From NCBI GenBank assembly GCA_964616425.1, contig CAZTQY010000001.1, forward strand, positions 23,008-87,007: a DNA stretch of 64,000 bases, in the 5' to 3' direction. The notes beneath the pieces are model-generated. The model searched no databases and was not told where the DNA came from. It was given only the letters and a program-made list of their open reading frames with translations. Source of the DNA: an uncultured Candidatus Saccharibacteria bacterium (GTDB lineage Bacteria; Patescibacteriota; Minisyncoccia; Phycocordibacterales; DATDWN01). Shown here one piece after another: positions 39,731 through 62,134 of this stretch; the first letter of the stretch is position 1, and each line of letters starts with the position of its first letter. Made by a program: the position numbers and the translations under genes.

Positions 39731-39976
39731 ATGAACGCTAATGGGTACCACCAACACGGAGAACTCCTCTTCCGTATGGCAAGAGGAAAGCCCGTAGAGG
39801 TCAAGGCCGGTGATTCGATCATCATGATCGACCAAACCGTCATGAAAGACGGTGTAGTCGTAAAGGTGACCGCAATTCACCTACCCTGTGCCGAACGTGG
39901 ACTGCACGTTCTGGACCTCTTCGTTCCAAGGAGACGCATGGTGGTGAGAGCCACCATACACGAGGTCAGTCACTAG
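39731..39976 (+). CDS. Hypothetical protein encoded by a GC-rich mini-islet
   Basis: Strong SD caggagggtca before the ATG. GC content far above the neighbours. Followed by its own terminator. Confidence 0.5.
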   Translation: MNANGYHQHGELLFRMARGKPVEVKAGDSIIMIDQTVMKDGVVVKVTAIHLPCAERGLHVLDLFVPRRRMVVRATIHEVSH

Positions 39977-39994
39977 GATGACCCCGAAAAACTG

Positions 39995-40030
39995 AAGGAG
40001 GCCCAAAACACCGTGGCCTCCTTTTCTTAT
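39995..40030. terminator. Bidirectional rho-independent terminator
   Basis: ggaggcc-caaaacaccgt-ggcctcc hairpin followed by a T-run. Sits between convergent genes. Confidence 0.7.
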
Positions 40031-41316
40031 TTAAGTGGTGGAACTCCAGCTCGTATTTTTAATGCATCAATAAGAGAAGTTGAATTAAACTCTGAACTTA
40101 GTTGAGTCTTCCAATCCTTATCTGTTGTTTTTACATTTGGATCAACACCCAAACCTTCTATCGACTGGTTATCGTCTCGCAAAGTTATACTATTTACCAA
40201 AAGCAAAGTGTACTTAACACTTGGATCAATAACAGTTTCTATAGGATAAGTGTTTTCAACAGTTCCCCATCCACGAGTGTTTGTTCCAACAGTCTTTGCC
40301 AAATGAAGTCTTTTAAATGTTGCCGCTGTTAGTTCTGCGGTTGACTGTGTCATATTATCAGTAAGTATTGCGATTTCTTTGTATCTGTCTAAAAGCGAAT
40401 ACTTTGGCTGAACGGTTCTCTGAACTTGGTAATCTCCCTGATGGAAAAGGTCAAAGGCGTACTGATTTGGGCCAACAAAAATTCCAAGAAAATTTTGAAG
40501 AAAATCTAGAGAACCTCCAACATTTCCACGAAAATCAATTATCATACTATTTAGTTTTGGTGTGGTTGAAGCTCCATCAATTGCATACGCAAACTCACCA
40601 AAAGTTGTCGGCGATATTTTACTAACATACAAATACAGAGTGTTACCTATTTTGTGGGTAAAAATCGTTGGTTCAATGCCTGCTTGATCATAAAGAGTTT
40701 TACTTTGTGGGTTGGTTAAAACATTTTTTGTATAGGCCAGCTGTTCTCTTTCAGCCTTTGCTTCGGGTGAAGTAGAAGCCTTTAACTCTGTGTCTTTTTT
40801 GTCATAAGCCTTTACTACATCCTCTGACGAAGCCCCCTTTTCTAGACCAAGATTTTGATAAAGATTTTTTGTTGTATCGATGTTTGCAACATTTTGTCTG
40901 AGTGCAGTTTCCTGTTGCGTTGAGAGCATCCCGTTTCTACCGACTGGCTGTAGATTATACAAAGTTACTATTGCGGTGTTCAGAGCGATATTTCTTTTAG
41001 CTTCTGTTGATGTAGCCTCATTTATTGCTACTGAAAGCATTTGTGCCACCCCTTCACGTGTAGTTGTAGAGAGAACAAATGTTTTGCCGACTGTTTTTTC
41101 CAAAGCTAATTTATAAAAATTATTCAGATCATACTGTGTATGTGGAGCCCAGTAGTTCAAAAGTATAGAATCATAAACTTCCATATCAAAACGAACAAAA
41201 TCATCTGACTCATATACAGTTTTGTACAAAACACTTTCTGTATTTTTATGATTCTTATAATAAAAACCAAAACTTAACAAACCAACAATAAAAATAATAG
41301 ATAAAAGTTTTTTCAT
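40027..41316 (-). CDS. S41-family C-terminal processing peptidase-like protein
   Basis: N-terminal TM. C-terminal IAILTDNMTQSTAELTAATFKRLHLAKTVGTNTRGWG resembles the S41 Ser/Lys-dyad region. Confidence 0.5.
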   Translation of the reverse strand: MKKLLSIIFIVGLLSFGFYYKNHKNTESVLYKTVYESDDFVRFDMEVYDSILLNYWAPHTQYDLNNFYKLALEKTVGKTFVLSTTTREGVAQMLSVAINEATSTEAKRNIALNTAIVTLYNLQPVGRNGMLSTQQETALRQNVANIDTTKNLYQNLGLEKGASSEDVVKAYDKKDTELKASTSPEAKAEREQLAYTKNVLTNPQSKTLYDQAGIEPTIFTHKIGNTLYLYVSKISPTTFGEFAYAIDGASTTPKLNSMIIDFRGNVGGSLDFLQNFLGIFVGPNQYAFDLFHQGDYQVQRTVQPKYSLLDRYKEIAILTDNMTQSTAELTAATFKRLHLAKTVGTNTRGWGTVENTYPIETVIDPSVKYTLLLVNSITLRDDNQSIEGLGVDPNVKTTDKDWKTQLSSEFNSTSLIDALKIRAGVPPLK

Positions 41317-41458
41317 CTTATATTTTCATCCAATATTTAAAATATAAATAAATCAAAACAAGGAGCACTAATAAAATACTAAACAAAACAATATAATATT
41401 TTGAATGATGGCGAATAGACATATAACTATTATAAATGTTTTGATGCTGTTTGCAAAA

Positions 41459-41487
41459 AGACCACCTGTTAGAGTGGTCTTTTTTTC
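41459..41487 (-). terminator. Rho-independent terminator of the 41505-41891 gene
   Basis: agaccac-ctgttaga-gtggtct hairpin with a T-run on the minus-strand transcript. Confidence 0.6.
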
Positions 41488-41504
41488 TGTCATGAAGCAG
41501 AGAA

Positions 41505-41891
41505 TCAAGCGTTGATCAGACGTTGGCGCTGGAAAGCGAACTCCTCCATCAGTCGCACGAGCGACCTCTTGAAAGAATTGCCTTTGCTTGCTTTGGTGAC
41601 AAACCCGTTGAACGGGTGCTTGGGCTGTTCCTTCATGGTGAACATGCCAAAGCTCAACACGACGAGCTTGCTGTTGATGGATTTCATCTTGTCCGCGAAC
41701 TTGCGATCAGACTCAGATGTTCCAACGACCAGCAATTGAAGAGTGTTCTCCGTAGTCACTCTGCAAGCCTCCTCCTCATTGCTCGTCACGATGTAGTCTT
41801 CGCTCGACACCACGTCTGAGTGAGAAAGATCCTCCTTCAACCTCTCGACCAGTTCTTCTGAAAGCTGGTAAATAACAATCGCTGGCGACAT
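41505..41891 (-). CDS. Hypothetical protein encoded by a GC-rich mini-islet
   Basis: SD aaaggaggtggtc immediately before ATG(MSPAIVIY). The longer track start at 41921 lacks an RBS. GC-rich. Confidence 0.5.
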   Translation of the reverse strand: MSPAIVIYQLSEELVERLKEDLSHSDVVSSEDYIVTSNEEEACRVTTENTLQLLVVGTSESDRKFADKMKSINSKLVVLSFGMFTMKEQPKHPFNGFVTKASKGNSFKRSLVRLMEEFAFQRQRLINA

Positions 41892-41948
41892 GACCACCTC
41901 CTTTGAAAAAATACCACACACATCATGAAGGCCTAATTAATTCTAACT

Positions 41949-42422
41949 TTATCCTTTCTGAAAAATCTCGAAATCATTCAAATCTTCGTTTGGACCAGCT
42001 GGGATTAAGTTCAATTTTGCTGGCTTACCATTCCAAGTTGCTTTTATAATCGCCCCTTCTGATGCTTTAAAATCAATTTTGAATCTTTCTGTTGTTAGAA
42101 CCTGAGCACACATTTCACCTTGAGTAGTTGCAGTAAACTCAAGTGTAACTTGTTCAGGCAAAGACTCTGAAACAACCGCCCTTGTGTCCAAAGCATAACA
42201 AGGAGTTGGCAGGTTTACTTCCCCTGCGACAATATGACTACCGCTTTTAAATTGATGTTTTGCTGTTATATCTGGAATATTTTCAGTCTCCTCACCCTTT
42301 ACCTCTGGAACTGGTTCAGATGAATTATGAAATTTTACCCAACCCCAAGTACCAGCTACCACGAGAAAGAGGACAATAATAATACCCCATATAACACCCT
42401 TGTTCATTCCTTCATTTTCCAT
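41949..42422 (-). CDS. Hypothetical secreted/membrane-anchored protein
   Basis: N-terminal TM VIWGIIIVLFLVVAGTWGW. Confidence 0.4.
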   Translation of the reverse strand: MENEGMNKGVIWGIIIVLFLVVAGTWGWVKFHNSSEPVPEVKGEETENIPDITAKHQFKSGSHIVAGEVNLPTPCYALDTRAVVSESLPEQVTLEFTATTQGEMCAQVLTTERFKIDFKASEGAIIKATWNGKPAKLNLIPAGPNEDLNDFEIFQKG

Positions 42423-42486
42423 ATGTTTTTTGTTAGTTAGTAATCTGCACTATATTATACCCTGAAACACGTAAATAAATTACAAT

Positions 42487-43314
42487 CTACAAATTAACCT
42501 TTTCTACCTTTATATCTTTACCAAAAAATTTACTGCCCAGTTTTTGGAATTTATCTGAATGGTCTGTTGTACAAAACCTAATTTTTTTACCCTTTGATAT
42601 TTTGTTTTCAATCTCAGAGTGTCTATTTAAATAATCCAAAAGCTTATTTGGGACAACCCTGGCCTCAGATATTATTTTTACATCTTTTCCAACTATCTTT
42701 TTAATTTTATTTTCCAAAATACCATAATGAGTGCACCCCAAAACCAAAGTATCTACTTTTTTGTCTACAAGTGGCTTCAGATACTGCTCTAAAATATTTT
42801 TTGTGGACAATTTATTTACTTCACCCAACTCAACTATAGGTACAAGTAACGGACAGGCTTTTTGAAAAACTTTTATTTTAGAATCAACTTTCCTAAACTC
42901 ATCTAGAAATGCCTTCGACTCAACACTCGCTTCAGTTGCGATAACTCCAACTCTTTTATTTTTTGTCTTTATACCAGCGTCTTCAACAGCTGGAATCAAA
43001 ACACCCAAAACTCTTTTGTTTGGGTATTTCTTTGGAAGATATTTTTGCTGAATAATACGCAAAGCTTCACTAGAAGCAGTGTTGCAAGCAAATATAATAA
43101 TTTCACAGCCTTCTTTGAACAAAAAATCCACCGCCTGTTTTGAGAACTTAAGTATTACTTCTTGAGACCTATTTCCATATGGAGCGCGTGCGCTGTCACC
43201 CAAATACACATAATCGTAATCTGGTAATTTTTTAACTATTCCCTTCAAAATATCTAAACCACCAAAACCAGAATCAAAAACACCAATAGATTTAGACTTC
43301 TGACTACCGGCCAT
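42487..43314 (-). CDS. murI: Glutamate racemase
   Basis: IGVFDSGFGGL, ACNTAS and LVLGCTHY are MurI catalytic-cysteine motifs. Confidence 0.9.
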   Translation of the reverse strand: MAGSQKSKSIGVFDSGFGGLDILKGIVKKLPDYDYVYLGDSARAPYGNRSQEVILKFSKQAVDFLFKEGCEIIIFACNTASSEALRIIQQKYLPKKYPNKRVLGVLIPAVEDAGIKTKNKRVGVIATEASVESKAFLDEFRKVDSKIKVFQKACPLLVPIVELGEVNKLSTKNILEQYLKPLVDKKVDTLVLGCTHYGILENKIKKIVGKDVKIISEARVVPNKLLDYLNRHSEIENKISKGKKIRFCTTDHSDKFQKLGSKFFGKDIKVEKVNL

Positions 43315-43315
43315 A

Positions 43316-43867
43316 CTAATACTCGATGTTTATAGGAAAAGATATTGAAGCATCTTTTTCAGACATACCAGATGGGTTGTCTTTCTCAAAGACTAAAGTA
43401 GCTGGACCAATATATGAATCTGGAACTTTCAGATCTATTTTGAAATTAACAAAATCAGTTGTCATCCAATCACTCTGTGCTTGTGCTGGACCCTGAGCCA
43501 AGACATTGCCGTCTTTATCTAAAACTTTAACAGGAAATGATGCTTCAAAATACCAAGTACCTCTAGCTTTGCCAGTTACAGAAAAATCTTTACCCGTAAC
43601 TGCTCCTGGGAACGGCAACTCTGGAACTATATCGTTTGTTGTTGCATTATTGTATGTGATTTTCTCTGGTATCTCCTCTGCAAACAACCTTCCGTCTGGA
43701 GTTCGACACTGTCTAGGATAACTCTCCATAACTGGATAATACTTTCCGCAATCCTCAAAAGATTTGATTTGAGACAAATCCACTTTTTTGGATCGACTAA
43801 AACTCAACCAACCAATAGCAATAACAACGATTAATATAAATATATACAGGAAATTTTTGTTTTTCAT
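43316..43867 (-). CDS. Hypothetical secreted protein
   Basis: N-terminal TM/signal. Confidence 0.4.
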   Translation of the reverse strand: MKNKNFLYIFILIVVIAIGWLSFSRSKKVDLSQIKSFEDCGKYYPVMESYPRQCRTPDGRLFAEEIPEKITYNNATTNDIVPELPFPGAVTGKDFSVTGKARGTWYFEASFPVKVLDKDGNVLAQGPAQAQSDWMTTDFVNFKIDLKVPDSYIGPATLVFEKDNPSGMSEKDASISFPINIEY

Positions 43868-43906
43868 ATTTAGTCGTATTATACCATCGAAACTAGCTAG
43901 TCAAAA

Positions 43907-44686
43907 CTATCTACCACCATACCCTCGACCTCCCCTCATCGCACCATTTCCATACATCATCCCACCAGTTTCTGTATCAGAGAGTATTATCTGGTTATAA
44001 TCTTGTTTCGAAATATATTTTGGTTCATATACAACACCTAGAGAACTTAACTGTGATGCAAATGCTCGCAAATGGTTTCTCGAACCACGATTTAAATTCT
44101 CATAAACCATTTTAATATCTTGGTTATCAGTTTTTGCAACATATTTATCCAAGTCGCTGATATCAAGATCTTCTATAGTTGCACCGACAGTCAGTGCATC
44201 CTCTCTAGATGTCAGGCCTTTGTTCACTAAACTCGTATACAAATTTTTCAAATCTGAATTTACAAATACTCCAACAGTATCATCAACGACTGGATCAGTA
44301 ATGTTGTATTTTACCAACAAAGCTTTTACTGCATCTGTGTGAGTCTGCTCACTTTGAGAAATATTTGAGAAAATTTGCATTCCCCACTTTTTATACAAAG
44401 TTGTGTACACATCACGAGCAAGTTTTTCTTCCTCACGCATATACAGCAAACCCACTTTTTCATCTGCGGATATTTCCTGGTTAGGTAGATTTGTAATCTC
44501 TGAATTCATAGTCAGATAACCTACAGAATTCACCTTATTACCAGACCAAGTATTTTTAATAAACCTTGACTCTGCACCGTCATAAAACGACAAACCAACA
44601 ACAGCAACCACCAACAAAACACCCAAAACTATCAGTGTAGTTTTCATATAGTTAATTATTAGCTTATACACCATTAGTACACCCAC
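43907..44686 (-). CDS. DUF2202-like ferritin-superfamily protein with N-terminal TM and C-terminal Gly-rich tail
   Basis: Paired EEEKLARDVY...E..H helices typical of DUF2202/ferritin-like proteins. GGMMYGNGAMRGGRGYGGR tail. Confidence 0.45.
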   Translation of the reverse strand: MGVLMVYKLIINYMKTTLIVLGVLLVVAVVGLSFYDGAESRFIKNTWSGNKVNSVGYLTMNSEITNLPNQEISADEKVGLLYMREEEKLARDVYTTLYKKWGMQIFSNISQSEQTHTDAVKALLVKYNITDPVVDDTVGVFVNSDLKNLYTSLVNKGLTSREDALTVGATIEDLDISDLDKYVAKTDNQDIKMVYENLNRGSRNHLRAFASQLSSLGVVYEPKYISKQDYNQIILSDTETGGMMYGNGAMRGGRGYGGR

Positions 44687-44783
44687 AAAAGTGGTTTTAT
44701 AACATACAGAGAAAACTATAGATATCTGATATTTGTCAGATAAAAAATTCGCTCCACCCCGCCAATGTTCAAATATTTAACTA

Positions 44784-46535
44784 TTATCCAAAAGTAAATG
44801 TAAATGCTTGTAATCCAGCTTTTGGTATTACGATTCGGAGTGTGTGTTTTCCATAATCAGAACCTTGGATAAGTGGGTAAAGCGTCTCATCTTTAATCAA
44901 GATTTTTTTAATAAATACATCATCTTTATATATTTCAACTTCAACCCCTTCTACTGATCCTGCCGCAATATATACATTCTTTGCTTCATATTTAAAAACA
45001 ATACTTCCAGCACTTTTGTTTTCAGCATACTCTGGTGTCATATTCCATGTTCCTCCAAGATAAAGTCCATTAAAAGTAACGGAAGAAGGAACAGATAAAT
45101 TTTGTTCGCCTGACCGAAGGGCATTACCATTTGCGAGATATTGGTTTCTAGATGATCCAAAATACACCTCAGGGCTTTTAACTTTAGTCGAATCGACTGG
45201 GATAACATCCAAAGGATTTGTAATCGTCGTCGAAACCTTGTCCTCCATACCCATGCGGGAAGCGCGTTCTTTAAGAGCCTCTTGGATTGCCTTTTCAGTC
45301 TCCTCATAATTTCCTTCACCAATATGGTCATAGACAATATATCCATCTATATCTATTAGATATTTACGTGGCCAATACTGGTTACCAAGTTCACTCCATG
45401 TTGAATAATCATTGTCCAAAACAACTGGGTATTTGATACCAAATTTTTCTACAGCCTTCTCAACATTTGATTGAATTTTTTCAAATGCAAATTCTGGTGT
45501 ATGAAGACCAACCACCACAAGCCCTTGATCTTTGTATTTCTCATACCATTTATTTATATACGGCAAAGTTCGCTGGCAGTTAATACAGCTATATGTCCAG
45601 ATATCTAGTAGCACCACCTTACCTTTTAACTCTGCTAACGTAATCGGTTTACCTTCTGTGTTTACATAACCGTCGATGGAACTCAATTCTGGAACCTTTT
45701 TGTATTTTAATCTTTTCTGCTCAACTGTTAGATACAAATCGGAATCTGTATTCATAGAACTTTCTTTTGCTACTTCCTTTGTTGATTTATTGTTTGAACT
45801 ATCACTCTTTTGCAAAAGGCTTTGTTCGATTTTTGTTACATCAAACAGCCCGGCATCAAGAAGAAATATTTGAGTTTTTTTGTCGAACCCTCCTATGATA
45901 GCAATACCAACAATCAAAAAGACGACGCCGAGTGTTTTTTTGAACCATCCATTCGGATCTGCTACAACTCCAAGCTTATTCATTATCTTTTGTCCAACAA
46001 CAGAAATAATCAGAAGAGAAAGACAAAGGCCAACAGTGTATGCAAGTAAATAAGTCAAACCGAGAAATAAATTACTTGGTAGAACTGTCGCCAAAACAAT
46101 AAAGTAAGTTGGACTACAAGTAGAAAAAACCGGCCCAAGTGAAGCCCCCACAATGACATCACCGAGAAAACTCTTTTTTTGATCACCTCTACCTAAAAGA
46201 ATATTTGATTTTGCACTAAGCTGTGCAGTAAATTGGTTTTCCCATATGGATGGGAAAATAGTAATCAGTCCAAGAAACAATACAATACCTCCAGAAATCC
46301 ACTTCCATACGTATTCTGGAATATCAATAAAGAGTGTGCTCGCTTTTAGCAACAGGGTAAAAACAATAACCGATACTCCCAGAGATAGAATGACAGTAAA
46401 AGCTTTCTTCTTATTGAATACTGAAACACCTCCATCAAATAACGTACCCCCCACTATTACTGGCAAAAGTGGCAGAATACAAGGAGCAAGTACAGTCAAA
46501 ACTCCAGCGATAAATGAAATAAAAAGTAATAACAT
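44784..46535 (-). CDS. Cytochrome c-type biogenesis CcdA/DsbD-like transmembrane domain fused to a thioredoxin-like (TlpA/redoxin) domain
   Basis: VLAPCILPLLP (CcdA-like), then WTYSCINCQRTLPYINKWYEKYKDQGLVVVGLHTPEF (CxxC redoxin). Confidence 0.7.
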   Translation of the reverse strand: MLLLFISFIAGVLTVLAPCILPLLPVIVGGTLFDGGVSVFNKKKAFTVILSLGVSVIVFTLLLKASTLFIDIPEYVWKWISGGIVLFLGLITIFPSIWENQFTAQLSAKSNILLGRGDQKKSFLGDVIVGASLGPVFSTCSPTYFIVLATVLPSNLFLGLTYLLAYTVGLCLSLLIISVVGQKIMNKLGVVADPNGWFKKTLGVVFLIVGIAIIGGFDKKTQIFLLDAGLFDVTKIEQSLLQKSDSSNNKSTKEVAKESSMNTDSDLYLTVEQKRLKYKKVPELSSIDGYVNTEGKPITLAELKGKVVLLDIWTYSCINCQRTLPYINKWYEKYKDQGLVVVGLHTPEFAFEKIQSNVEKAVEKFGIKYPVVLDNDYSTWSELGNQYWPRKYLIDIDGYIVYDHIGEGNYEETEKAIQEALKERASRMGMEDKVSTTITNPLDVIPVDSTKVKSPEVYFGSSRNQYLANGNALRSGEQNLSVPSSVTFNGLYLGGTWNMTPEYAENKSAGSIVFKYEAKNVYIAAGSVEGVEVEIYKDDVFIKKILIKDETLYPLIQGSDYGKHTLRIVIPKAGLQAFTFTFG

Positions 46536-46536
46536 G

Positions 46537-47061
46537 TTATTTAATTTCTGCTACAAGCGAAGCGAGAGTAGGGCTACCACTCCATTTTTTAATAAGGTTT
46601 CCATTCTTATCAACTTGTACAAAAGTATGCTGGTATGTAACACCATATTTCTGTTTTAATGCAGTTGAGTTGTCATAATTTACATCAAGGATTGTTACAT
46701 CAGATGGCATTTTACCCAAGTTTGCTTTAATATCAGCATCTACAACTCGACAGGTTGGACACCAACTTGCTCTAAAGAAAAGAACAACGTTGTGTTCGGC
46801 ATTTGCCATCGCTATCTTTTCTGGAGAATATGCCTCGTATGATCCAGCTTTCATCATTGAATCATCTGTGCTTGTCATGCTTGTATCGTCTTGTTTCATC
46901 ATGGCTTTTTCTTCTGTGTTTTTTGTAGATTCCATAGAATCTTTGCCTACCGACTCTTTCAGCATCATTGCCTGATCACCTTTTTTATTTGAAAAGTATA
47001 CTCCTCCAACAATAACCAAAATAACTGCAAACCCTATTATAATTCCTGTACTTTTATTCAT
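46537..47061 (-). CDS. Membrane-anchored thioredoxin-like protein
   Basis: WCPTC active site, thioredoxin fold. Confidence 0.75.
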   Translation of the reverse strand: MNKSTGIIIGFAVILVIVGGVYFSNKKGDQAMMLKESVGKDSMESTKNTEEKAMMKQDDTSMTSTDDSMMKAGSYEAYSPEKIAMANAEHNVVLFFRASWCPTCRVVDADIKANLGKMPSDVTILDVNYDNSTALKQKYGVTYQHTFVQVDKNGNLIKKWSGSPTLASLVAEIK

Positions 47062-47116
47062 AAATATTATTAGTATTAATTTTTAATATGTATTAAGTAT
47101 ATAAAATGTGAAATAC

Positions 47117-47150
47117 CATGTAAAGTAGACTTTACATGGTATACGTGGAT
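47117..47150 (-). terminator. Terminator hairpin downstream of the 47169-47531 gene
   Basis: accatgtaaag-tagac-tttacatggt, followed by a T-rich tract on the minus strand. Confidence 0.5.
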
Positions 47151-47168
47151 AAATATTAGCTTTAACTG

Positions 47169-47733: not shown

Positions 47734-47885
47734 ACATTTGGATGTAGGTGATTATATATTTCTAATTTAGGAATGTAAAGTTGTCTTTACTACATAAATA
47801 TTCTACAAGAGTGGTTTTATAACATTTTGAAAATAAGAAATAGTAATTATAAACTAATATTAACAGTCTGTACGAAGTTCGAACT

Positions 47886-48299: not shown

Positions 48300-48303
48300 A
48301 CAC

Positions 48304-48801: not shown

Positions 48802-48802
48802 A

Positions 48803-50161: not shown

Positions 50162-50176
50162 TAAGTAATTCTAACA

Positions 50177-53157: not shown

Positions 53158-53159
53158 AA

Positions 53160-53190: not shown

Positions 53191-53202
53191 GAGCTTTCGA
53201 AT

Positions 53203-53295: not shown

Positions 53296-53448
53296 TGTGT
53301 TTTTGATTATGTCTAATATATTCGACCTACCTGTATTATACAACCTATAACTTGTAAATATTCCATATATTCTACACTTGACTAATGAATAAATTTATGC
53401 TATCATTGTGGGTAGTAGTTATTTAAAAACAAACCCAAAGGAGGACCT

Positions 53449-54441
53449 GTGTCTACGACTGAAGGCGGCAACGCCCCGCTCGTCACGATACTCGTCCCCT
53501 GTTACCAGTACGGACGATATCTGAAAACTTGTCTGGATGGAATTTTCGCCCAGACGATAATCAACGAGATTTCATTTGAAATCATCGTCATCAACGACGG
53601 CTCAACAGATGAGACCGACGAGGTGATGTATGAATTCAATGATCCTCGGATTCGTTACATCCGTCTACCTGAAAACCAAGGCATCTGTAATGCGCTAGCA
53701 CAAGGCATTACACTGGCAAAAGGAAAGTACTTTGCCAGGATTGATGCTGACGACAGGTGGAAGCCACACTTTCTCGAGGAAGTACTACCGATCCTCGAGA
53801 AACACCCTGATGTTGGACTTGTGTACGGCGATGTAATACACATCGACAAACACAACAACGTCATCCAGGATCCGAGCACGATCTGCTCGATCATCCACCA
53901 CAACGGAAGAGACTTCAAAGGAGACGAATTCTTTTTCCAGCTTATGGGATGCAGTATTGGTACAGCTGGTGTGATTGGCAGAACTTCTGCCCTTCGTCCA
54001 GCAATACCTTTCCCAAGTAGTTTCACTTGGGGCTACCCATCTGACTGGTGGTTGCATATGGTGGTTCTAAGGGATCACCAGATGTACTACACCAGACGCG
54101 TCATCGGCGAGTACAGAATGCACGCCGAAAGCATGACGAGTCAGGGAAAAATTGTTTCTTCGTCCTACGAAGAAACAATGATCGGGGCTTTGGACATTCT
54201 CTTTAGCGAGGGAAGACGAGCGAGTGAACGTCGAAAGTCCTACGCGTACATGTGGACTAGTGTGGGTAACATACATTTCGAAAGAAACTATGGAGCCTGC
54301 GCAAGAAGAGCCTACATGAAAGCTGTGATGTACCGACCGGATTACATTTTCCGGAAGTCCATCGTCCGGCACTTTCTGTCGAGTCTTCTGCCAAGGCCTA
54401 TGTACGAGGTAATAAAGAAAGGGGTAAAGAAAATGTTCTGA
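53449..54441 (+). CDS. Family 2 glycosyltransferase; GC-rich, putative horizontally acquired
   Basis: ILVPCYQYGRYLKTCLDGIFAQT, INDGSTDETDEV and RIDADD are GT2 DxD motifs. GTG start preceded by aaaggagg. GC content clearly above the neighbours. Confidence 0.8.
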   Translation: MSTTEGGNAPLVTILVPCYQYGRYLKTCLDGIFAQTIINEISFEIIVINDGSTDETDEVMYEFNDPRIRYIRLPENQGICNALAQGITLAKGKYFARIDADDRWKPHFLEEVLPILEKHPDVGLVYGDVIHIDKHNNVIQDPSTICSIIHHNGRDFKGDEFFFQLMGCSIGTAGVIGRTSALRPAIPFPSSFTWGYPSDWWLHMVVLRDHQMYYTRRVIGEYRMHAESMTSQGKIVSSSYEETMIGALDILFSEGRRASERRKSYAYMWTSVGNIHFERNYGACARRAYMKAVMYRPDYIFRKSIVRHFLSSLLPRPMYEVIKKGVKKMF

Positions 54442-54478
54442 GCCGGCCTGTGCTAACGCAAGGGTCGGCTTTTACTAT
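54440..54478 (+). terminator. Terminator hairpin after the GT2 gene
   Basis: agccggcc...gggtcggct followed by tttt. Confidence 0.5.
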
Positions 54479-54485
54479 TAAAAAA

Positions 54486-55517
54486 CTATTTTTGACTGAT
54501 TATATTTACCAAAGCAAGTTCTAGTGGCAGAGATGGAATGTACGCTCCTGTTGTTTTTTCGTAAGCGCCTAAAAGCTCAACTAGATCAGATGAAGATAAA
54601 CTTCCCTCTCCTTTGGCCAACGTACTGACAAATTCAAACTCAACTTCTGACAACTCGTCTTTTATAATATTTCCAGCATTAAAACGAACGAGGAGAAAAG
54701 CTCTAGACATGTGCAAAATCAATTTCAAAAAGACAGACATGTCTATATTTTGACTTACGGCTTTTTTTATAGAACCCAAACCAAGTTCCAAATTTTTGTT
54801 TACGATAGAAGTGATGACATCATTTACTAGGTCTATGGCTGGAGCTCCAGTTACTAAACGAACATCATCCTCACTAACTGCTGTTTGTTTTTTACTTTTA
54901 CTATAAACCAAAATCTTTTGGAGAATTCCCAAAGTATCACGGAATGAACCATCACCCAAAAGAGCAACTAAATCTGATGATGCGTCATCTAATGTAAAAC
55001 CTTCTTTCTTTGCGACGTTAGTTACAACTTTTTTCAAGACATCTTGTGATGGTTTTTTGAATGTATAAGTTTCGCAACGAGAAAGCACTGTTTCAGGTAT
55101 TTTGTGAGTCTCTGTTGTCGCAAGAATAAATACAACATGAGATGGAGGCTCCTCCAAAGTTTTTAACAAAGCATTTGCAGCGGACTTTGAGAGCATGTGA
55201 ACTTCATCCAAAATGTAGACTTTGTATTTTGACTCGAAAGGTAAAGTAAATACAGAATCATTGAGATTACGAATATCATCAACGCTTGTATTTGATGCTG
55301 CATCTATTTCATAAATATCATTTTTAGATGTGCCTATTGCGTCAGCAAATATTCTAGCAATAGAAGTTTTTCCTGTGCCACGTGTTCCAGAAAAAAGATA
55401 TGCGTGAGAAATATCTCCGGACTTTGCCTCAGCGTCTAAAACTTTAACTATATGATCCTGTCCAACAACTTCAGAAAACTTTCCTGGCCTGTATTTTCTA
55501 TATAATGCTTCTGACAT
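54486..55517 (-). CDS. dnaX: DNA polymerase III gamma/tau subunit (short, 343 aa)
   Basis: YRPGKFSEVVGQDHIV, Walker A GTRGTGKTS, and DEVHML. Confidence 0.85.
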   Translation of the reverse strand: MSEALYRKYRPGKFSEVVGQDHIVKVLDAEAKSGDISHAYLFSGTRGTGKTSIARIFADAIGTSKNDIYEIDAASNTSVDDIRNLNDSVFTLPFESKYKVYILDEVHMLSKSAANALLKTLEEPPSHVVFILATTETHKIPETVLSRCETYTFKKPSQDVLKKVVTNVAKKEGFTLDDASSDLVALLGDGSFRDTLGILQKILVYSKSKKQTAVSEDDVRLVTGAPAIDLVNDVITSIVNKNLELGLGSIKKAVSQNIDMSVFLKLILHMSRAFLLVRFNAGNIIKDELSEVEFEFVSTLAKGEGSLSSSDLVELLGAYEKTTGAYIPSLPLELALVNIISQK

Positions 55518-55519
55518 AT

Positions 55520-56165
55520 TAACTAGTATATCTTATTGTGGATTTTGGACAAAACAGTAACGCGAATGGGGGCCGTCAGATGACGGCCCCCTAAAAAAAA
55601 TTTACCCGTAACGAGGCATGGCATCCTCCAGTTTACGACTGTTTGAGGTGGCACCGCGCCACTACGGTCTTAGGCTATGAAGCCTAGCTTCACTGCTGCC
55701 GTGCCGGCCCAGCTCGTGTTGAACACAGTTGATATTCCCTACCAAGGGCGAGCTCTTAGGCATCCATTATGTCAACTGGTCTAACTAAACAGTATCACAT
55801 CCAAAAAACATACGTCAATTTTTTGTATTAAAAAAGTCGGGCGCAATGCATCCCGACGAACTGGGCCACCAGCAGTTGAAAGACTTGTCTACAACTGCCG
55901 GTGGCCAATCTACCTAGCCTCCCCAATACGTGAGGAGTATGATTGCCAACCAAGAGTCTCCCAAAACCCTCGATAAGCAATGAAATGTGGATGTGGCTCA
56001 AGCCCACACAAGACTGATTAGCCCCGTCAGTATTGTAAGGCGATCCAAACTTTCCACAGAGATCCAGACCGTGCATCCATTGGTACTTTTTGGGAAAAGC
56101 ACCACACGGCGGACCATCTGACCATCATTATATACTTTTTACATGAAAAGTCAATGAGGTCAGTG
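55520..56165 (-). ncRNA. GC-rich ~640-bp non-coding region with strong secondary structure, probably containing one or two structured ncRNAs. Identity unresolved; SRP RNA upstream of dnaX is one candidate
   Basis: No credible ORF. GC content far above the genome background. Minus-strand terminator gtcgggatgcattgcgcccgac + UUUUUU at about 55827-55860. A 16-bp imperfect stem at 55864-55910. Conserved ffs-dnaX synteny in many bacteria. Confidence 0.35.
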
Positions 56166-56169
56166 GCTT

Positions 56170-57171
56170 TTAAAAGTTATCTTTTATGTAAACTTCTACA
56201 ATATCAGAAATTTCTTTTGCATCTTTGGCTTCCATCAATCTAACTCTAAGTTCTTTTGCACCATCCCATCCGTTTACGTAAGCCTTATAATGTTTTTTCA
56301 TTATTGCAAAACTTTTATGAGAAAGAATGCTCTCAAAAAGTTTTGTGTGTTCCACCATAACATGGAGTCTTTCTGGTATCGAAATATCATCCCTTTTAAT
56401 TCCAACATTAAACAACCAAGGATTTCCAAAAATAGCTCGCCCGAGCATTACACCATCACAACCAGTCTCTATAACTTTTTTCTGTGAATCATTCAAATCC
56501 AAAGCATCACCATTACCAAAAATTAAAGTTTCGCTTTTGACTCCATTTGAATCAACAAAATCATTTCGAATCTCAACCGCTCTTTTTATATGTTCCCATC
56601 TTGCAGGAACCAGTGACATTTCTTTTCTTGTCCTTGCGTGGACAGTTATTACCGCAGGGTTTGTCTCCAATATTGCAGGTAACCAAGTTTCAAGTTCATT
56701 TTTATTGTAACCAATTCTAGTTTTTACACTTACTGGAATATTTTTACCATTTTTACTTGCACCTCTTTGGGCAGCACGAATTATTTCTTGGGCAAGTTTT
56801 GGATTTTTTATTAGACCAGCACCAGCACCTTGTTTTTCAATACTTTTATCAGGACAACCCATATTTATATCTATTCCATCAAAACCCAAATCCACTGCAA
56901 GTTCAGCAGCTTTTTCCATCATCTCTGGCTTACTTGTAAAAAATTGCGCAACTATAGGGCGCTCTTCTTCAGTAAATGCCAGGTCTTTTATCAATGCGTC
57001 ATATCCCCCCAGAAAAAGTCCGTCTGCGGAAACAAACTCAGTCCAAGTCACATCTGGTTTTCCGTATTTTGCAATAATACTTCGAAAAGCAGGATCAGTA
57101 ACATCCGCCATTGGAGCCAATACCATTATTCCGTCTGGTCTATTATTTTTTAAATCTTTCCAAAAATTCAT
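56170..57171 (-). CDS. dusB: tRNA-dihydrouridine synthase
   Basis: VLAPMADVTDPAFR N-terminal motif, TIM-barrel Dus family. Confidence 0.85.
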   Translation of the reverse strand: MNFWKDLKNNRPDGIMVLAPMADVTDPAFRSIIAKYGKPDVTWTEFVSADGLFLGGYDALIKDLAFTEEERPIVAQFFTSKPEMMEKAAELAVDLGFDGIDINMGCPDKSIEKQGAGAGLIKNPKLAQEIIRAAQRGASKNGKNIPVSVKTRIGYNKNELETWLPAILETNPAVITVHARTRKEMSLVPARWEHIKRAVEIRNDFVDSNGVKSETLIFGNGDALDLNDSQKKVIETGCDGVMLGRAIFGNPWLFNVGIKRDDISIPERLHVMVEHTKLFESILSHKSFAIMKKHYKAYVNGWDGAKELRVRLMEAKDAKEISDIVEVYIKDNF

Positions 57172-57174
57172 ACT

Positions 57175-57975
57175 CTATATATTCAAAAATAAACTTGCTA
57201 ACGTAACTGGACCAACGCCACCAGGCACAGGAGTAATAAGCCCTGCTTTATCACTACAACCTGGATCAACATCCCCTACTATCTTTCCGTTTTGTTCACT
57301 GGTACCAGCATCTATTAGAATTACACCTTCTTTTATCATGTCTGGTTTTATCATATATGGAGAGCCTGCACCAGATATGATTATGTCTGCAGAATATATT
57401 AACTTTTTACTCAAACTCATATCTGTATTTTTATCTATTACCTTAAACTGGATGTTTTTTGATTTGAACATTGCACTAACTGGCTCTCCAACCAGCTTTC
57501 CAGTTCCAATAATCAGAATTTCTTTATTTTCAATTTCAATATTATAAAATTCCAATATCTCTGAAATCGCACGAGATACTGGAGGAACTTTCTCTATTGA
57601 TTTGTTTTTATACAGAGTCTTTGCTTTGTCGCTCAAAACATCTATATCTAGTTCTACTGGAACCATATTTAACACTTCCTGGGTTGGTAAATCTTTAGGT
57701 AGTGGAAGCTGTATAACCATACCCACTACATCTCTAGATGTAATATCTCTTATGACTTTTTCAACTTGGTCAAAAGATAGAGACTCGGGATGAGCTTCTA
57801 CTGTAGTTTTTATTCCCAAAGATTCTGCAAACCTGCATTTCATTGCAACAAACTGTTTACTTGCAGGATCATTACCAAAAATTACAAAACAAACCTCTTT
57901 TTTGGGTTTATCTTTTAAATTCAATATTATTTTTTCTTTTAGCTTGGCTGAGACTAGCTTTCCATCGGCTATCAT
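57175..57975 (-). CDS. folD: Bifunctional methylenetetrahydrofolate dehydrogenase/cyclohydrolase
   Basis: FolD-wide similarity, with QLPLP and GxGxxVG motifs. Confidence 0.85.
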   Translation of the reverse strand: MIADGKLVSAKLKEKIILNLKDKPKKEVCFVIFGNDPASKQFVAMKCRFAESLGIKTTVEAHPESLSFDQVEKVIRDITSRDVVGMVIQLPLPKDLPTQEVLNMVPVELDIDVLSDKAKTLYKNKSIEKVPPVSRAISEILEFYNIEIENKEILIIGTGKLVGEPVSAMFKSKNIQFKVIDKNTDMSLSKKLIYSADIIISGAGSPYMIKPDMIKEGVILIDAGTSEQNGKIVGDVDPGCSDKAGLITPVPGGVGPVTLASLFLNI

Positions 57976-58862
57976 AGTTTTTCCCCTTTTAGTTTGTAAA
58001 ACAACTTATTGCCATAACGTAAGTCGATATACTCTATAGGCAAATCAGAATTTGTGCTAGTAGACATGGCAGGAGTTCTCAAAAGTGACTCAAGATTTTG
58101 AGAAATTTCATTAAGTGGTTTTTTCATATCAAATAAAATCTCTCCACCTCCAGATATAACCAATGAAAAGTCTCCTCCCTCACCAGCAACCAAATATATT
58201 GGGTGCAAAGACATTCGTCTAACGGATTCGATAAAACTATTTATTTCATCAAACTCTGTAGATGATGAAATATAGTAATTTCCTATCGGAGTGCTCGTGC
58301 CTATAGAACCATAATATTTAAAATATGCATTTCCAGAAAAGTATGGTGCCTCTGAAAAAATAGTACTGTTCTGGTCGATAAAATAACATTTTTGGTCATC
58401 TGAACCTTCACTCAACACTGGAGATGATGTAGAGACAGTCGCATGAATCAATAAAGATTCGCACCAAATAGCAAAAGGTTTTCTTTCTTCTATTGTGACA
58501 ATCATGGTCGTCAAACCATCTAAGTCTATGTTTATATTTTCAATTCTCTTGAAGTTTTGTTTCAAATAGTCCTTTAATTTATTTTTTGGATACCAAAAAC
58601 TACTATTTTTTGGGAAAAGCCAGAAATACGAACCGCTCATGTATTCAAAAGATTTTTCTCCCACATCTCCATTTGTCACAAGCACACCACCAGTCAAAAC
58701 AATTTTAGTTATTCGAACCTCCTTCCTGTGAGATGCATAAGAAAATAATCCGATTGCCAATATAATGAAAAAAAATATTGCAGAATATTTTAGTATTCTT
58801 TTTTTTCTTTTTCTCCTTAAATATTCTTCACGAGAAGGCAATGTTGAATTATTTATTGGCAT
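57972..58862 (-). CDS. ftsQ: Cell-division protein FtsQ/DivIB-like (POTRA domain)
   Basis: N-terminal TM, then POTRA-like ITKIVLTGGVLVTNGDVGEKS...TMIVTIEERKPFAIW. Confidence 0.5.
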   Translation of the reverse strand: MPINNSTLPSREEYLRRKRKKRILKYSAIFFFIILAIGLFSYASHRKEVRITKIVLTGGVLVTNGDVGEKSFEYMSGSYFWLFPKNSSFWYPKNKLKDYLKQNFKRIENINIDLDGLTTMIVTIEERKPFAIWCESLLIHATVSTSSPVLSEGSDDQKCYFIDQNSTIFSEAPYFSGNAYFKYYGSIGTSTPIGNYYISSSTEFDEINSFIESVRRMSLHPIYLVAGEGGDFSLVISGGGEILFDMKKPLNEISQNLESLLRTPAMSTSTNSDLPIEYIDLRYGNKLFYKLKGEKL

Positions 58863-59065
58863 AGGTTTTTCAATTTTTGTTTTTTAGAGCACGCATAATC
58901 GCAGGCTTGCGATTTGCTCTCACTCAACGATCAAGAAAACTATTTTCCTCATTCCAGAGCCCTCTCGCAAACTCGGGCTCTGCCCTCAAACAGCACTCCA
59001 GGCTTCTTCTCATTCGTTGTCGTTATCTAATCACTTCCGCAGTCTCCAAAACCAAGAAAAAGTTC

Positions 59066-60349
59066 CTAGCGTTTAGAGATTACAGCTTGTCCGTTCATGT
59101 ATGGACGTAGAACTTCTGGAACACTGATTGAACCATCTGCATTCTGATAGTTCTCAACCAACATAATAAGTGGCCTACCAGAAAGTGCTGTGTTGTTTAG
59201 AGAGTGCACAAATTTCATCTTTCCATCTTCGTCTCTGTATCTGATATTAAGTCTGCGAGTCTGGAAATCATGAAAATATGATGCTGAACCAGTCTCTCTA
59301 TATGTAGCTTCTGACGGAAGCCAAACTTCTATATCGTATTTCTTTACCTGACCTAAGCCCAAATCCCCTCCACAGTTTGCAACTACATGGTAGTGAAGTC
59401 CTAGTGCTTCTGTTATTTCTTCACTGTTTCTTTGAATCTCTTCGTGATGCTTTACTGATTCTTCGTGAGAAGCCTCACACAATACTACTTGTTCATATTT
59501 GAAAAACTCGTGAACTCGTATTAAACCTTTTGTATCCTTTCCATGACTTCCAGCTTCTCGTCTAAAAGCAGGAGAAAAAGAAAGCATTTTGAGTGGCAAA
59601 TCTTTTTTTTCTAAAACTTCATCCATATAGTAACCCATAGTTGCAACCTCTGCAGTTCCTGCCAAATAATCACCATCCTGAGTTTTATACAAATCCTCCT
59701 CACCTTGTGGTAAATATCCAGTTCCCATGAACACTTCACGTTTTAGTAATGACGGAACAATCATAGAAGTCCAGTTGTTTCCATCCAAGTTCTTTTTATA
59801 AAAATAATCTTGCGTGAAATTCCACAGAGCGTTCATAAGGCGAACACCGTCACCCTTTAGAAAATATCCTCTAAAGCCAGCAACTTTTGTTCCTCGTTCT
59901 AGATCAAGCATACCTAAATTTGTCATGAGTTCGATATGATCCTTTGGAGCGAAATCAAATACTGGCTTTTCACCCCAAACCTTTACCTCTTTGTTATCCT
60001 TGTCATCAACTCCTTCTGGAACAGACATGTCTGGAATGTTCGGAACTGCGACCATCAACACTTGCCAATCATGCATCACAGTTTTTAGTTCTTCCTCTTC
60101 TTTTTGCAGAGACTCTTTGAGAGTTTTCATCTCAGCTATCATTGTTGCCTTTTCTGCCGGGTCAGTGATACTAACTATTTTCTGGCTTACCTCGTTTTGC
60201 TCTGCTCTTTTTTTATCAATAGATAAAATTAGTTCTTTTCGTCTATCATCAACTTTTATAAGTGCTTCCACATCGAAATCAATGTGTTTTTTTATTGCCC
60301 CCATTGCCACGAGATCCTTATTTTCTCGAATGAATTTGATATCTAACAT
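59066..60349 (-). CDS. serS: Seryl-tRNA synthetase
   Basis: N-terminal coiled coil plus class II aaRS motifs (FRREAGSHGKDTKGLIRVHEF, GSASYFHDFQTRR). Confidence 0.9.
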   Translation of the reverse strand: MLDIKFIRENKDLVAMGAIKKHIDFDVEALIKVDDRRKELILSIDKKRAEQNEVSQKIVSITDPAEKATMIAEMKTLKESLQKEEEELKTVMHDWQVLMVAVPNIPDMSVPEGVDDKDNKEVKVWGEKPVFDFAPKDHIELMTNLGMLDLERGTKVAGFRGYFLKGDGVRLMNALWNFTQDYFYKKNLDGNNWTSMIVPSLLKREVFMGTGYLPQGEEDLYKTQDGDYLAGTAEVATMGYYMDEVLEKKDLPLKMLSFSPAFRREAGSHGKDTKGLIRVHEFFKYEQVVLCEASHEESVKHHEEIQRNSEEITEALGLHYHVVANCGGDLGLGQVKKYDIEVWLPSEATYRETGSASYFHDFQTRRLNIRYRDEDGKMKFVHSLNNTALSGRPLIMLVENYQNADGSISVPEVLRPYMNGQAVISKR

Positions 60350-60384
60350 ATTTAGGATTGTAACAGAATTTTTTATATATGAGA

Positions 60385-60412
60385 ATAGCCGGTCTCCCGG
60401 CTATTTTAATTA
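60385..60412. terminator. Terminator hairpin
   Basis: agccggtctcccggct, followed by atttt. Confidence 0.55.
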
Positions 60413-60430
60413 CTTCACCTCCTTTTTTGG

Positions 60431-60676
60431 TCAGACTTTCTTGTACCGACCGACAAGCTCACGCTTGAGAGCGTACAAAACACCACCGTCTCCCACAGTT
60501 CGCATTGGCACAACAAACAATCTTGTTGTGTTATCGTCAGACGGGTTGAGTCTCACATCCCGCTTCATGGGGTTCTCGATGTTGACTGTAGTACCAGCAT
60601 AACAAACACCTGCCAATACAAGCTCCCTCAAACGATCATAATACACGGGGATGTTGTCAGTAAGTCTGACCAGCAT
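60431..60676 (-). CDS. Hypothetical protein encoded by a GC-rich mini-islet
   Basis: SD ttaggagggtac before the ATG. GC-rich. Own terminator downstream. Confidence 0.45.
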   Translation of the reverse strand: MLVRLTDNIPVYYDRLRELVLAGVCYAGTTVNIENPMKRDVRLNPSDDNTTRLFVVPMRTVGDGGVLYALKRELVGRYKKV

Positions 60677-60745
60677 GTACCCTCCTAATAATTAGGTTAC
60701 CTTTTTAAATATCAGTGTCAATTATTTTGCTATACTATATATGTT

Positions 60746-61600
60746 ATGGAAATCAGAGATCTTCCAAAGAAAGATTTTCCTCCACTATTAAATGAAATCA
60801 ACGACCCACCGAAATCTTTACGGATCGTGGGCACCTTACCTCGAACCGAAAAATACCTAGCCGTTGTTGGTTCAAGAAAATATAGTGAGTATGGAAAAGC
60901 TGTTTGCGAAAAATTGATTGAGGGTTTACGAGGTTATCCTATTACTATAGTGTCTGGACTGGCACTCGGTATGGATTCTATTGGCCACAGAGCAGCACTC
61001 AAAGCCGGACTCCATACGATAGCAATCCCAGGTTCAGGACTTGATGAAAAGGTTATATATCCATCAAGCCATTTAAATCTAGCAAAAGAAATAGTGGAAA
61101 AAGGTGGATGTCTACTTTCGGAATTCCCAGATGACTACCGACCTCATTTATATAGTTTTGGACAACGCAACAGAATAGTAGCTGGTATGTGTCACGCAAC
61201 ACTTATAATAGAAGCTGAACTTAAATCCGGAACACTTATCACTTCAAAATATGCAATTGAGTACAACCGAGATGTTTTTACTGTTCCCAACTCAATCTTT
61301 TCTAAAACTTCTGAAGGTCCGCATATGTTACTACGACTTGGAGCTACACCCATAACTCAATCAAACGATATTATCACAGCTCTAGGACTAACTCCTCATG
61401 AGAATCTTTTTGAAAGACGAGACTACAAAGATTGCTCAAGTGACGAACACGAAGTTATAAATCTGCTTTCTGAACCGATATCGCGAGATCAAATCATTCA
61501 AAGACTCGACAAACCTGTTTATGTAACACAAACAATTCTAGCAACCATGGAAATTAAAGGGATCATAGAAGAAGTAATGGGAGAAATACATTTGAAATAG
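60746..61600 (+). CDS. dprA: DNA-processing protein A (SMF family)
   Basis: Rossmann-like SMF core: VVGSRKYSEYGKAVCEKL, VSGLALGMDSIGHRAAL, and TLIIEAELKSGTLITSKYAIEYNRDVF. Confidence 0.85.
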   Translation: MEIRDLPKKDFPPLLNEINDPPKSLRIVGTLPRTEKYLAVVGSRKYSEYGKAVCEKLIEGLRGYPITIVSGLALGMDSIGHRAALKAGLHTIAIPGSGLDEKVIYPSSHLNLAKEIVEKGGCLLSEFPDDYRPHLYSFGQRNRIVAGMCHATLIIEAELKSGTLITSKYAIEYNRDVFTVPNSIFSKTSEGPHMLLRLGATPITQSNDIITALGLTPHENLFERRDYKDCSSDEHEVINLLSEPISRDQIIQRLDKPVYVTQTILATMEIKGIIEEVMGEIHLK

Positions 61601-61641
61601 TTTTTTATTTCACGTATAAATAATGTAGAACTGGAGGGTTC

Positions 61642-61908
61642 ATGATACTCGCACTTGAAAAAATGTCGGTGGATGTCCCGATTTCCGCCGGAGACAAGTT
61701 GCAGTGGAACAACGAAGGTAAGTTCATCACTGCACAGGCGCAAAGTGGGAAACCACTCTATTGGCAGGGCAACCAGTTGAAGAAGATGGCTAGCTGGTTG
61801 CGGAGCGATGAACAGTTCGACAGCTATGTGATGATTCTGGCAGAAATACTCAATCTCAAGGCTGTCCTCGTTGAAGGTGAACGTCACAGGACGTATAGAT
61901 TTGAGTGA
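61642..61908 (+). CDS. Hypothetical protein encoded by a GC-rich mini-islet
   Basis: SD ctggagggttc before the ATG. GC-rich. Followed by a hairpin at 61926-61957. Confidence 0.45.
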   Translation: MILALEKMSVDVPISAGDKLQWNNEGKFITAQAQSGKPLYWQGNQLKKMASWLRSDEQFDSYVMILAEILNLKAVLVEGERHRTYRFE

Positions 61909-62134
61909 TGTTCTTTCGTCCACAAACGGCTCCACGTATTATGCGTCGGAGCCGTTAAACTTTATTCCATATCCGACCTTTAATTTTGAGTAAAATCCGA
62001 GGAGGAATAGAAAAATAATTTGAGTCGTATACACAAGTACGGTGAAAATTATTTTTTGAATTCCGACAAAGGAGTTTGCCAAAATTAGAGGTTATATTGG
62101 ACAAAAATTATTTTTATAGTAATACTAGATAGCA

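Follow-up and report, generated by a model that had tools for sequence, protein, structure and literature searches.

GC-rich, Shine-Dalgarno-led single-gene islets and their persistence in the AT-rich genome of an uncultured Candidatus Saccharibacteria bacterium

Bacteria of the candidate phyla radiation (CPR) represent a large share of bacterial diversity, and gene expression in these organisms is little known. Here, we describe six GC-rich genes led by strong Shine-Dalgarno (SD) sequences in a stretch of 64,000 nucleotides (the window) from an uncultured Candidatus Saccharibacteria bacterium (GenBank assembly GCA_964616425.1, contig CAZTQY010000001.1, positions 23,008 to 87,007). Several known systems resemble these islets. 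Horizontally acquired atypical genes, such as islets and phage 'morons', are likewise autonomous units with promoter and terminator, deviant codon usage, patchy distribution and ORFan products. The genomes of Mycobacterium, Deinococcus and Streptomyces mix leaderless and SD-led messenger RNAs (mRNAs), and in the SD-poor Bacteroidetes an SD is retained by a handful of genes, rpsU among them; both cases share with ours the presence of two initiation modes and a small strong-SD minority. Integron cassettes are also small units with a single open reading frame (ORF), often an ORFan, with an SD, a 3' hairpin and interchangeable occupants. Within the same phylum, about half of the Parcubacteria are reported to lack the anti-SD motif of the 16S ribosomal RNA (rRNA) (Tsurumaki et al. 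2022, RNA 28:1041, PMC9297842).

The islets depart from each of these systems. Compared with the usual atypical genes, they are richer in GC than their host, the reverse being more usual, they differ from it in initiation mode as well, and several of them have kept their composition in orthologous positions over species-level and deeper splits, at which amelioration should have set in; they are not adjoined by prophage or mobility genes. Among the organisms named above that have both kinds of mRNA, neither composition nor apparent origin separates the two classes, whereas here the SD-led minority corresponds almost exactly to the GC-rich outliers, and a conserved SD-led subset is not part of the Parcubacteria study (PMC9297842). 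In contrast to integron cassettes, the islets are scattered and have their own promoters, with neither an attC-like site nor an integrase, and their hairpins look like ordinary terminators. In the literature, we found no paper describing a dichotomy of SD-led, GC-rich genes and leaderless genes in CPR bacteria. The window thus features a clean split within one genome, with SD-less and often leaderless native genes on one side and about 10% GC-rich, SD-led, monocistronic genes on the other, and what is unusual is that the deviant state persists across species. At roughly even odds (probability about 0.5), we read the outliers as old accessory genes that were acquired horizontally at different times, are translated through their SD and have been held in a GC-rich state.

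The statistics were computed per gene on the ORFs called in the window, with native comparison sets of 49 genes for GC content at third codon positions (GC3) and 50 genes for SD and promoter statistics. The outlier genes are referred to as 4127, 39731, 41505, GT2 (53449-54441), 60431 and 61642. While the window as a whole has a GC content of 37.2%, all six outliers have a GC content of 0.48-0.53 and a GC3 of 0.51-0.68; native GC3 averages 0.270 (standard deviation 0.039, maximum 0.36), which places the outliers at z = +6.2 to +10.6. Segments this rich in GC are rare, with just 2.5% of 250-nt segments reaching 48% GC or more when the insertion sequence (IS) island discussed below is set aside. 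Both C and G are raised at third positions, with AAG, GAG, CAG, CTG and GTC/GTG favoured, and the shift therefore resembles a genome of about 50% GC and not a mere preference for C-ending codons. Translational selection was rejected as an explanation, since the enrichment extends to CTG/GTG and to the G-ending codons of Lys, Glu and Gln. The initial annotation of this DNA, made from the sequence alone, had singled out five small genes as GC outliers against AT-rich neighbours and had ascribed the same character to GT2; the GC3 and codon statistics uphold this for all six, including GT2 (GC3 0.55, SD duplex free energy (dG) -11.6 kcal/mol, 3' hairpin), and gave no indication that these genes are not outliers. 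In an all-against-all BLASTP comparison the six proteins were mutually unrelated.

The contrast extends to translation initiation. An AGGAGG-type SD stands 4-5 nt before the start in six of six outliers, with an anti-SD duplex dG of -9.8 to -12.9 kcal/mol. Among native genes the median dG is about 0 and values of -6 or lower occur in 2 of 50 (outliers versus native, Mann-Whitney p = 5e-5), a difference which confirms the earlier impression of strong SDs on the outliers and mostly SD-less native genes. Seeming SDs of the native apbE gene and of a gene for a 127-amino-acid (aa) protein were discarded as false positives at internal start codons. Instead, 18 of the 50 native genes have a strong -10 hexamer whose last base lies 4-10 nt ahead of the ATG, versus 5-6 in equal-sized control bins, and TATAAT or TATACT boxes lie 6-9 nt before the ATG without an SD at, for example, 60746, 52134, 52465, 54486 (minus strand) and 59066 (minus strand). 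Such boxes close to the ATG, together with the missing SD, point to leaderless-type genes, and by these signals about a third or more of the native genes look leaderless-type. Related Parcubacteria loci are equally SD-poor, and SD poverty is thus clade-wide.

The promoters of the outliers are AT-rich and of native type, while the GC-rich part is the transcribed unit from SD to hairpin. Downstream of each of the six lies a stable hairpin (z = -3.4 to -5.3 versus shuffles), which is followed by a reasonable U-tract in four cases and a weak one after 60431 and 61642; a simple terminator scan detected none of the six. The notion of a GC-rich hairpin terminator for each gene is accordingly sound for the hairpins themselves, but less so for the U-tails of these two genes. 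In every orthologue, AGGAG(G) is kept upstream despite differing spacers, which speaks for persistence of the anti-SD in this lineage and indirectly implies that it is functional in an SD-poor Parcubacteria lineage. Across seven close loci, SD and GC3 are associated (Fisher odds ratio 11.7, p = 1e-5). The 16S rRNA gene was not found in the eight related loci examined.

Relatives provide the time scale. By exact sequence matches, the window belongs to an uncultured Parcubacteria (CPR/Patescibacteria) population that is represented by further assemblies, such as GCA_020049755.1. Among named relatives, Parcubacteria bacterium C7867-006 (GCA_001189155.1) is nearest, at approximately 74-81% nucleotide identity over syntenic DNA; its contig is L013 among the loci compared here, and the other L-numbers denote related loci fetched for comparison. 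In C7867-006, GT2, 60431 and 61642 are found in conserved synteny and are equally GC-rich, and all orthologues of these three genes and of 41505 retain the GC-rich, SD-led state. Conversely, 4127 and 39731 are species-specific, and 39731, 4127 and 41505 are each missing from one or more close relatives. Presence and absence therefore differ between the genes, being patchy for the latter three and syntenic in C7867-006 for the former three, and the suggestion that the genes were acquired independently does not hold, in the sense of recent acquisition, for at least four of the six (GT2, 60431, 61642 and 41505, which are syntenic). Acquisition was staggered and mostly old, and these four demonstrably predate speciations at which native synonymous sites are near-saturated. 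On sequence criteria, the six ORFs are real protein-coding genes; compared with the C7867-006 orthologues, the ratio of nonsynonymous to synonymous divergence (dN/dS) is 0.045 for 61642, 0.23 for 60431 and 0.16 for GT2, with changes concentrated at third codon positions.

The GC-rich state has lasted longer than a simple model of neutral decay would predict. At four-fold degenerate sites the native GC content (GC4) is 0.15-0.19, and the native identity of the window is 0.49 to C7867-006 and 0.41 to L036/L038, with saturation at 0.36. GT2 has diverged to the same degree (four-fold identity 0.43), yet its GC4 is 0.49 and 0.54 in the two lineages. A Hasegawa-Kishino-Yano (HKY) process with native equilibrium frequencies, which assumes stationarity and the native mutation spectrum, predicts from an ancestral GC4 of 1.0 at most 0.37-0.54 at the split between the window and C7867-006 and at most 0.23-0.39 at the deeper 60431 split. 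Passive amelioration of one ancestral import thus fits the observed values poorly, and either synonymous GC is constrained or alleles have been replaced from outside. The islets are in this regard a test case for the question of whether recent transfer can always be read from deviant composition, which persists here over near-saturated synonymous divergence. A comparison of islet and flank single-nucleotide polymorphism (SNP) density among sibling strains was uninformative because the SNPs cluster in the recombinant tract 35839-37732, with nearly none elsewhere.

The longest of the outliers is GT2 (53449-54441, plus strand), which encodes a 330-aa family-2 glycosyltransferase (Pfam PF00535, E = 1.6e-31, 110 bits versus a cut-off of 23.3) and begins with a GTG that is backed by an aligned ATG in the orthologue. 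It has a TTGACT-17-TATCAT promoter at 53378-53406, an AGGAGG SD at 53439-53444 and a hairpin at 54442-54469. The C7867-006 orthologue occupies the same slot with 64% amino-acid identity and a GC3 of 0.55, and the nearest homologues outside the genus (about 40% identity) belong to polysaccharide gene clusters, one in a genome of 51% GC and the other in one of 67%.

Gene 60431 (60431-60676, minus strand; SD AGGAGGG 60686-60680, hairpin 60384-60405) lies between dprA and serS and encodes an 81-aa, all-beta SH3b-like protein, for which modelling predicts an SH3-like beta-barrel resembling cell-wall-binding SH3b domains. The same slot is GC-rich in C7867-006, and orthologues between dprA and serS in L036 and L038 share 49-50% amino-acid identity, have a GC3 of 0.55-0.57 and keep TAGGAGG despite saturated synonymous sites. 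On the C7867-006 contig, the NCBI annotation calls an antisense 103-aa ORF (8736-9047, plus strand) over the SH3b-like gene (8790-9035, minus strand), while the JGI annotation of that contig calls the gene itself. GC-rich islets are prone to such wrong-strand calls, and a gene finder that has learned the native class will probably mis-call islet genes, as with the antisense calls in the public C7867-006 annotation.

Between dprA and topA, gene 61642 (61642-61908, plus strand; SD GGAGGG 61633-61638, hairpin 61925-61956) encodes an 88-aa ORFan with a GC3 of 0.60 and an SD dG of -9.8 kcal/mol, for which the only homologues among 5.8 billion proteins belong to its own 90% cluster. It is 97% identical to its C7867-006 orthologue at the amino-acid level and 94% at the nucleotide level, with neighbours at about 79% nucleotide identity, and its synonymous divergence (dS) is 0.32 versus 1.1-2.3 for the neighbours; together with its promoter, it forms the best-conserved stretch (93-96% identity) of an 11.6-kb alignment. 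The low dS and high identity point either to an exchange among lineages in recent times or to strong nucleotide-level constraint. From its terminator to the topA promoter, a 115-bp segment (61966-62080) that holds a GAGGAGG motif and then a possible 22-codon ORF with a TTG start is missing in C7867-006.

The stand-alone receiver-like protein of gene 41505 (41505-41891, minus strand; SD AGGAGGT 41902-41896, terminator hairpin 41455-41484) has 128 aa, with a GC3 of 0.68 and an SD dG of -12.9 kcal/mol for the gene. Its family is small, with 10 representatives among 1.8 billion proteins. The AlphaFold model (predicted local distance difference test score, pLDDT, 79) alternates strands and helices, and Foldseek matches it to many CheY-like receiver domains (template modelling score, TM, 0.57-0.66, probability 1.0), so that the protein is predicted to take the CheY-like (beta-alpha)5 receiver fold. 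The invariant columns of the family are M1, Q52, F65, K70, L76 and F118; with no invariant Asp and no Pfam match to Response_reg, the protein is at best a pseudo-receiver (pseudo-REC). Orthologues that are GC-rich, SD-led and beside the same neighbours were found in L030 and L039, and the gene is absent from C7867-006. A homologue with 38% identity is located on a contig of 51% GC with matching composition and SD. The view that the products have no recognisable domains stands for the small proteins as far as Pfam and PHROGs are concerned, where searches gave nothing significant, and gives way to predicted folds for 41505 (receiver-like) and 60431 (SH3b-like).

Gene 39731 (39731-39976, plus strand) encodes an 81-aa ORFan behind a TTGACG-16-TATAAT promoter (39687-39714) with 11 of 12 positions matched and an AGGAGGG SD (39721-39727); its GC3 is 0.62, its SD dG -10.8 kcal/mol and its hairpin (39994-40024) has a z of -3.4. 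It is identical in five assemblies of the species, and no homologue was found in any relative, C7867-006 included. The slot, which is convergent with an S41 peptidase gene, holds different GC-rich, SD-led ORFs of 80-89 aa in L018 and L019 and is empty in L016, L017 and L028. The three occupants show no significant homology (Smith-Waterman shuffle, z = 1.8, -0.2 and 2.4), and a GExLxRMxRG motif in them was dropped since the shuffle test was not significant.

The smallest product is that of gene 4127 (minus strand), for which the ORF first proposed stands with its upper coordinate moved by one, to 4127-4258 instead of 4127-4257. It comprises 43 aa with a C-terminal hydrophobic helix (KLWVVLLVVLVIIGVAMMLNA), which is the single predicted transmembrane helix. 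The gene has a GC content of 0.52, a GC3 of 0.66, a GGGAGGA SD (4269-4263; dG -11.9 kcal/mol) with a TTGACT/TAGTAT promoter upstream, and a 3' hairpin (4061-4108) with a 14-bp stem (-31 kcal/mol, z = -5.3). The short hydrophobic helix and the 3' hairpin might suggest a type I toxin-like peptide, but the folding z of the coding sequence is just -0.9. No homologue was found in 80 related loci, and the gene is absent from L042, where the neighbouring helicase is 92% identical.

Further GC-rich inserts were noted in relatives (L042 383-1949, L043 2693-3652, L049 2996-3811, L039 753-1184 and L019 18161-18811). They have 47-60% GC, span 0.4-1.6 kb and sit in otherwise compact slots, such as upstream of a DEAD-box helicase gene. 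Pfam found no domains in the tested ORFs of these inserts, and some of them may be non-coding.

In the reading that we favour, each of the six would be a real, monocistronic, protein-coding accessory gene placed in a gap between native operons, with a common layout of an AT-rich native promoter of sigma-70 type, a leader of about 12-20 nt with AGGAGG, a GC-rich ORF and a hairpin. The genes would have been gained horizontally from higher-GC, SD-using bacteria or their mobile elements by a clade which may have given up SD-led initiation and become largely leaderless. Because the islet mRNAs start with a leader, they would require classical 30S initiation by SD and anti-SD pairing, and such a separate SD channel would explain why the SD is kept in every orthologue. 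The high synonymous GC, which outlasts neutral decay, would probably reflect constraint (mRNA structure or stability) or allele replacement through conserved flanks. The products, namely a pseudo-receiver, an SH3b-like domain, a membrane peptide, two ORFans and a glycosyltransferase, appear small, fast-evolving and lineage-restricted, and they fit accessory or interaction roles better than housekeeping. If so, the combination of GC richness and SD could be a simple finder of accessory and interaction genes in these genomes.

That this genome takes up GC-rich DNA is shown by an island of 2.9 kb and 53% GC (32912-35817), which replaces a 48-bp intergenic spacer of sibling strains; it holds the only transposase of the window, an IS110-family-like gene on the minus strand (33192-34487, Pfam Transposase_20), and at least eight hairpin units on one strand, with the 14-mer AGTTCTTTCGAACA common to their loops. 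The transposase had no tblastn match in plasmids, and a search of about 120 related loci did not reveal the motif array. Together with the homologues of GT2 and 41505 in genomes of 51-67% GC, this island makes import from higher-GC SD users plausible. The initial annotation had already proposed foreign cassettes from a higher-GC source; as an origin this is plausible.

A number of observations speak against such an origin. No donor was found, and no shared flanking repeats, which had been proposed as a check, were seen among the six loci, nor were border repeats, an integrase or tRNA targets. Homology searches gave the Pfam match of GT2 and the family of 41505, whereas 5.8 billion plus 1.8 billion sequences yielded nothing beyond the genus for 39731, 60431 and 61642, and IMG/VR scans with four small outlier proteins yielded no viral relatives; for the three ORFan-like small proteins, composition is the sole argument for foreign origin. 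In a wider set of 27 loci at greater distance, SD and GC3 are just weakly associated (odds ratio 4, p = 0.07), with GC-rich ORFs making up 6% of all ORFs there, and we infer SD use in this organism from SD conservation alone. The decay model is simple, and the 81-aa gene offers just 18-30 four-fold sites. Finally, long GC3 retention in fast-evolving orthologues is unlike a passively ameliorating foreign gene, and the same persistence data also fit a native class that is maintained by selection.

The latter explanation, which we consider unlikely overall but the most serious of the alternatives, holds that the outliers are not foreign but form an expression class of lineage-specific Parcubacteria genes, kept by selection on SD-led transcripts that are GC-rich and structured, issue from strong promoters and end in a hairpin, where GC would be a transcript adaptation that could serve mRNA stability, high output or regulation apart from the leaderless bulk. 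It would account for the persistence of GC3 and SD in orthologues over near-saturated synonymous divergence, for the coincidence of the GC-rich part with the SD-to-hairpin transcript behind AT-rich, native-type promoters, and for the detectable homologues of the small proteins, which all come from this group of uncultured bacteria. A neighbouring GC-rich unit (55830-56122) is probably a structured non-coding RNA (ncRNA), which also fits, and the outlier coding sequences fold more stably (-0.30 to -0.36 kcal/mol per nt) than native ones (-0.15 to -0.23). Compared with dinucleotide shuffles, however, folding stands out for 39731 (z = -3.2) and the 5' part of GT2 (z = -5.0) but is unremarkable for 4127, 60431 and 61642. 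The native class is further opposed by the GT2 and 41505 family homologues in higher-GC genomes, by the mobile element of the same GC level that has just entered this strain, by the patchy presence and the non-homologous occupants of one slot, and by the preference for G-ending Lys, Glu and Gln codons, which is unlike tRNA-adaptation selection. A bolder version, to which we give rather little credence, is that selection actively keeps fast-evolving, lineage-specific small proteins, such as the SH3b-like domain, the pseudo-receiver and the membrane peptide, on GC-rich, structured, SD-led mRNAs as a second, orthogonal expression channel. If this were true, the channel would perhaps be switched by the state of ribosomes or initiation factors and perhaps serve an episymbiotic lifestyle, and base composition would mark the expression channel and not gene ancestry.

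It is very improbable that the islets are cassettes moved by site-specific recombination, integron-like or linked to the IS110-type island, with the 10-mer TGTTCTTTCG directly after the 61908 stop as a scar. The exact 10-mer does adjoin the 61642 stop, the hairpin units of the island share AGTTCTTTCGAACA, and relatives fill the same slots with other GC-rich ORFs. Nevertheless, the site at 61909 has 3 of 14 mismatches to the island AGTTCTTTCGAACA, lacks the flanking stem and is also kept in C7867-006, whose examined loci contain no island of this kind; the motif was seen in no other islet and in none of about 120 related loci, and with one mismatch allowed it has 11 matches versus 5.3±2.5 expected, of which 4 are inside the island. 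Moreover, each islet has its own promoter and a distinct hairpin, with no attC-like shared site. The degenerate island core noted earlier after 61908 is thus present as a 10-mer, but its link to the island is weak and the likeness is probably a coincidence.

We find it hardly credible that the islets are structured ncRNAs with ORFs as mere by-products of GC-rich sequence. It is true that AT-rich genomes have GC-rich structured RNAs, that the islets are overlapped by long antisense ORFs and that the unit at 55830-56122 looks non-coding, but the third-position changes with dN/dS of 0.045-0.23, the SD and start codon kept in every orthologue, the confident protein fold predictions and the real protein family of 41505 indicate otherwise; Rfam 15 (gathering and E-value thresholds) revealed no known RNA in any islet, and folding z is modest for most of them. 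Although the source is a metagenome assembly, a chimera in which GC-rich reads of another organism were stitched in can be dismissed as an assembly or binning artefact, since several assemblies made independently of one another (NCBI, JGI, ENA and Logan) have identical islet junctions, which also recur in different species.

Beside the IS110-type island, the tract 35839-37732 has a SNP density of about 5% versus the sibling strain L008, compared with 0.1-0.3% in the next 8 kb, which indicates recombination import within the population. Beyond the genes listed initially, another GC-rich islet (55560-56130) without a convincing ORF lies between holB and dus. It includes the candidate structured ncRNA at 55830-56122 (minus strand, about 290 nt), with a promoter (56154-56127) matched at 11 of 12 positions, a hairpin with a T6 terminator and a minimum free energy of -122 kcal/mol (z = -6.0); the unit has no SD-led ORF and no Rfam match, and the counterpart slot in C7867-006 is equally GC-rich and not alignable. 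A second GC-rich unit (about 55600-55786, minus strand) has its own sigma-70-like promoter and likewise no SD-led ORF. Between serS and the gene for a 296-aa protein, the segment 58863-59050 (minus strand) has elevated GC and is 92-93% identical to C7867-006 compared with about 78% in its flanks, and may be a conserved 5' leader or small RNA, with a folding z of just -1.8. The only Rfam matches in the window were tRNA-Gln and a c-di-GMP-II riboswitch (31155-31238, minus strand, 61.5 bits) upstream of the gene for a 1473-aa protein (26679-31100), the riboswitch being a notable regulatory element for a reduced CPR genome.

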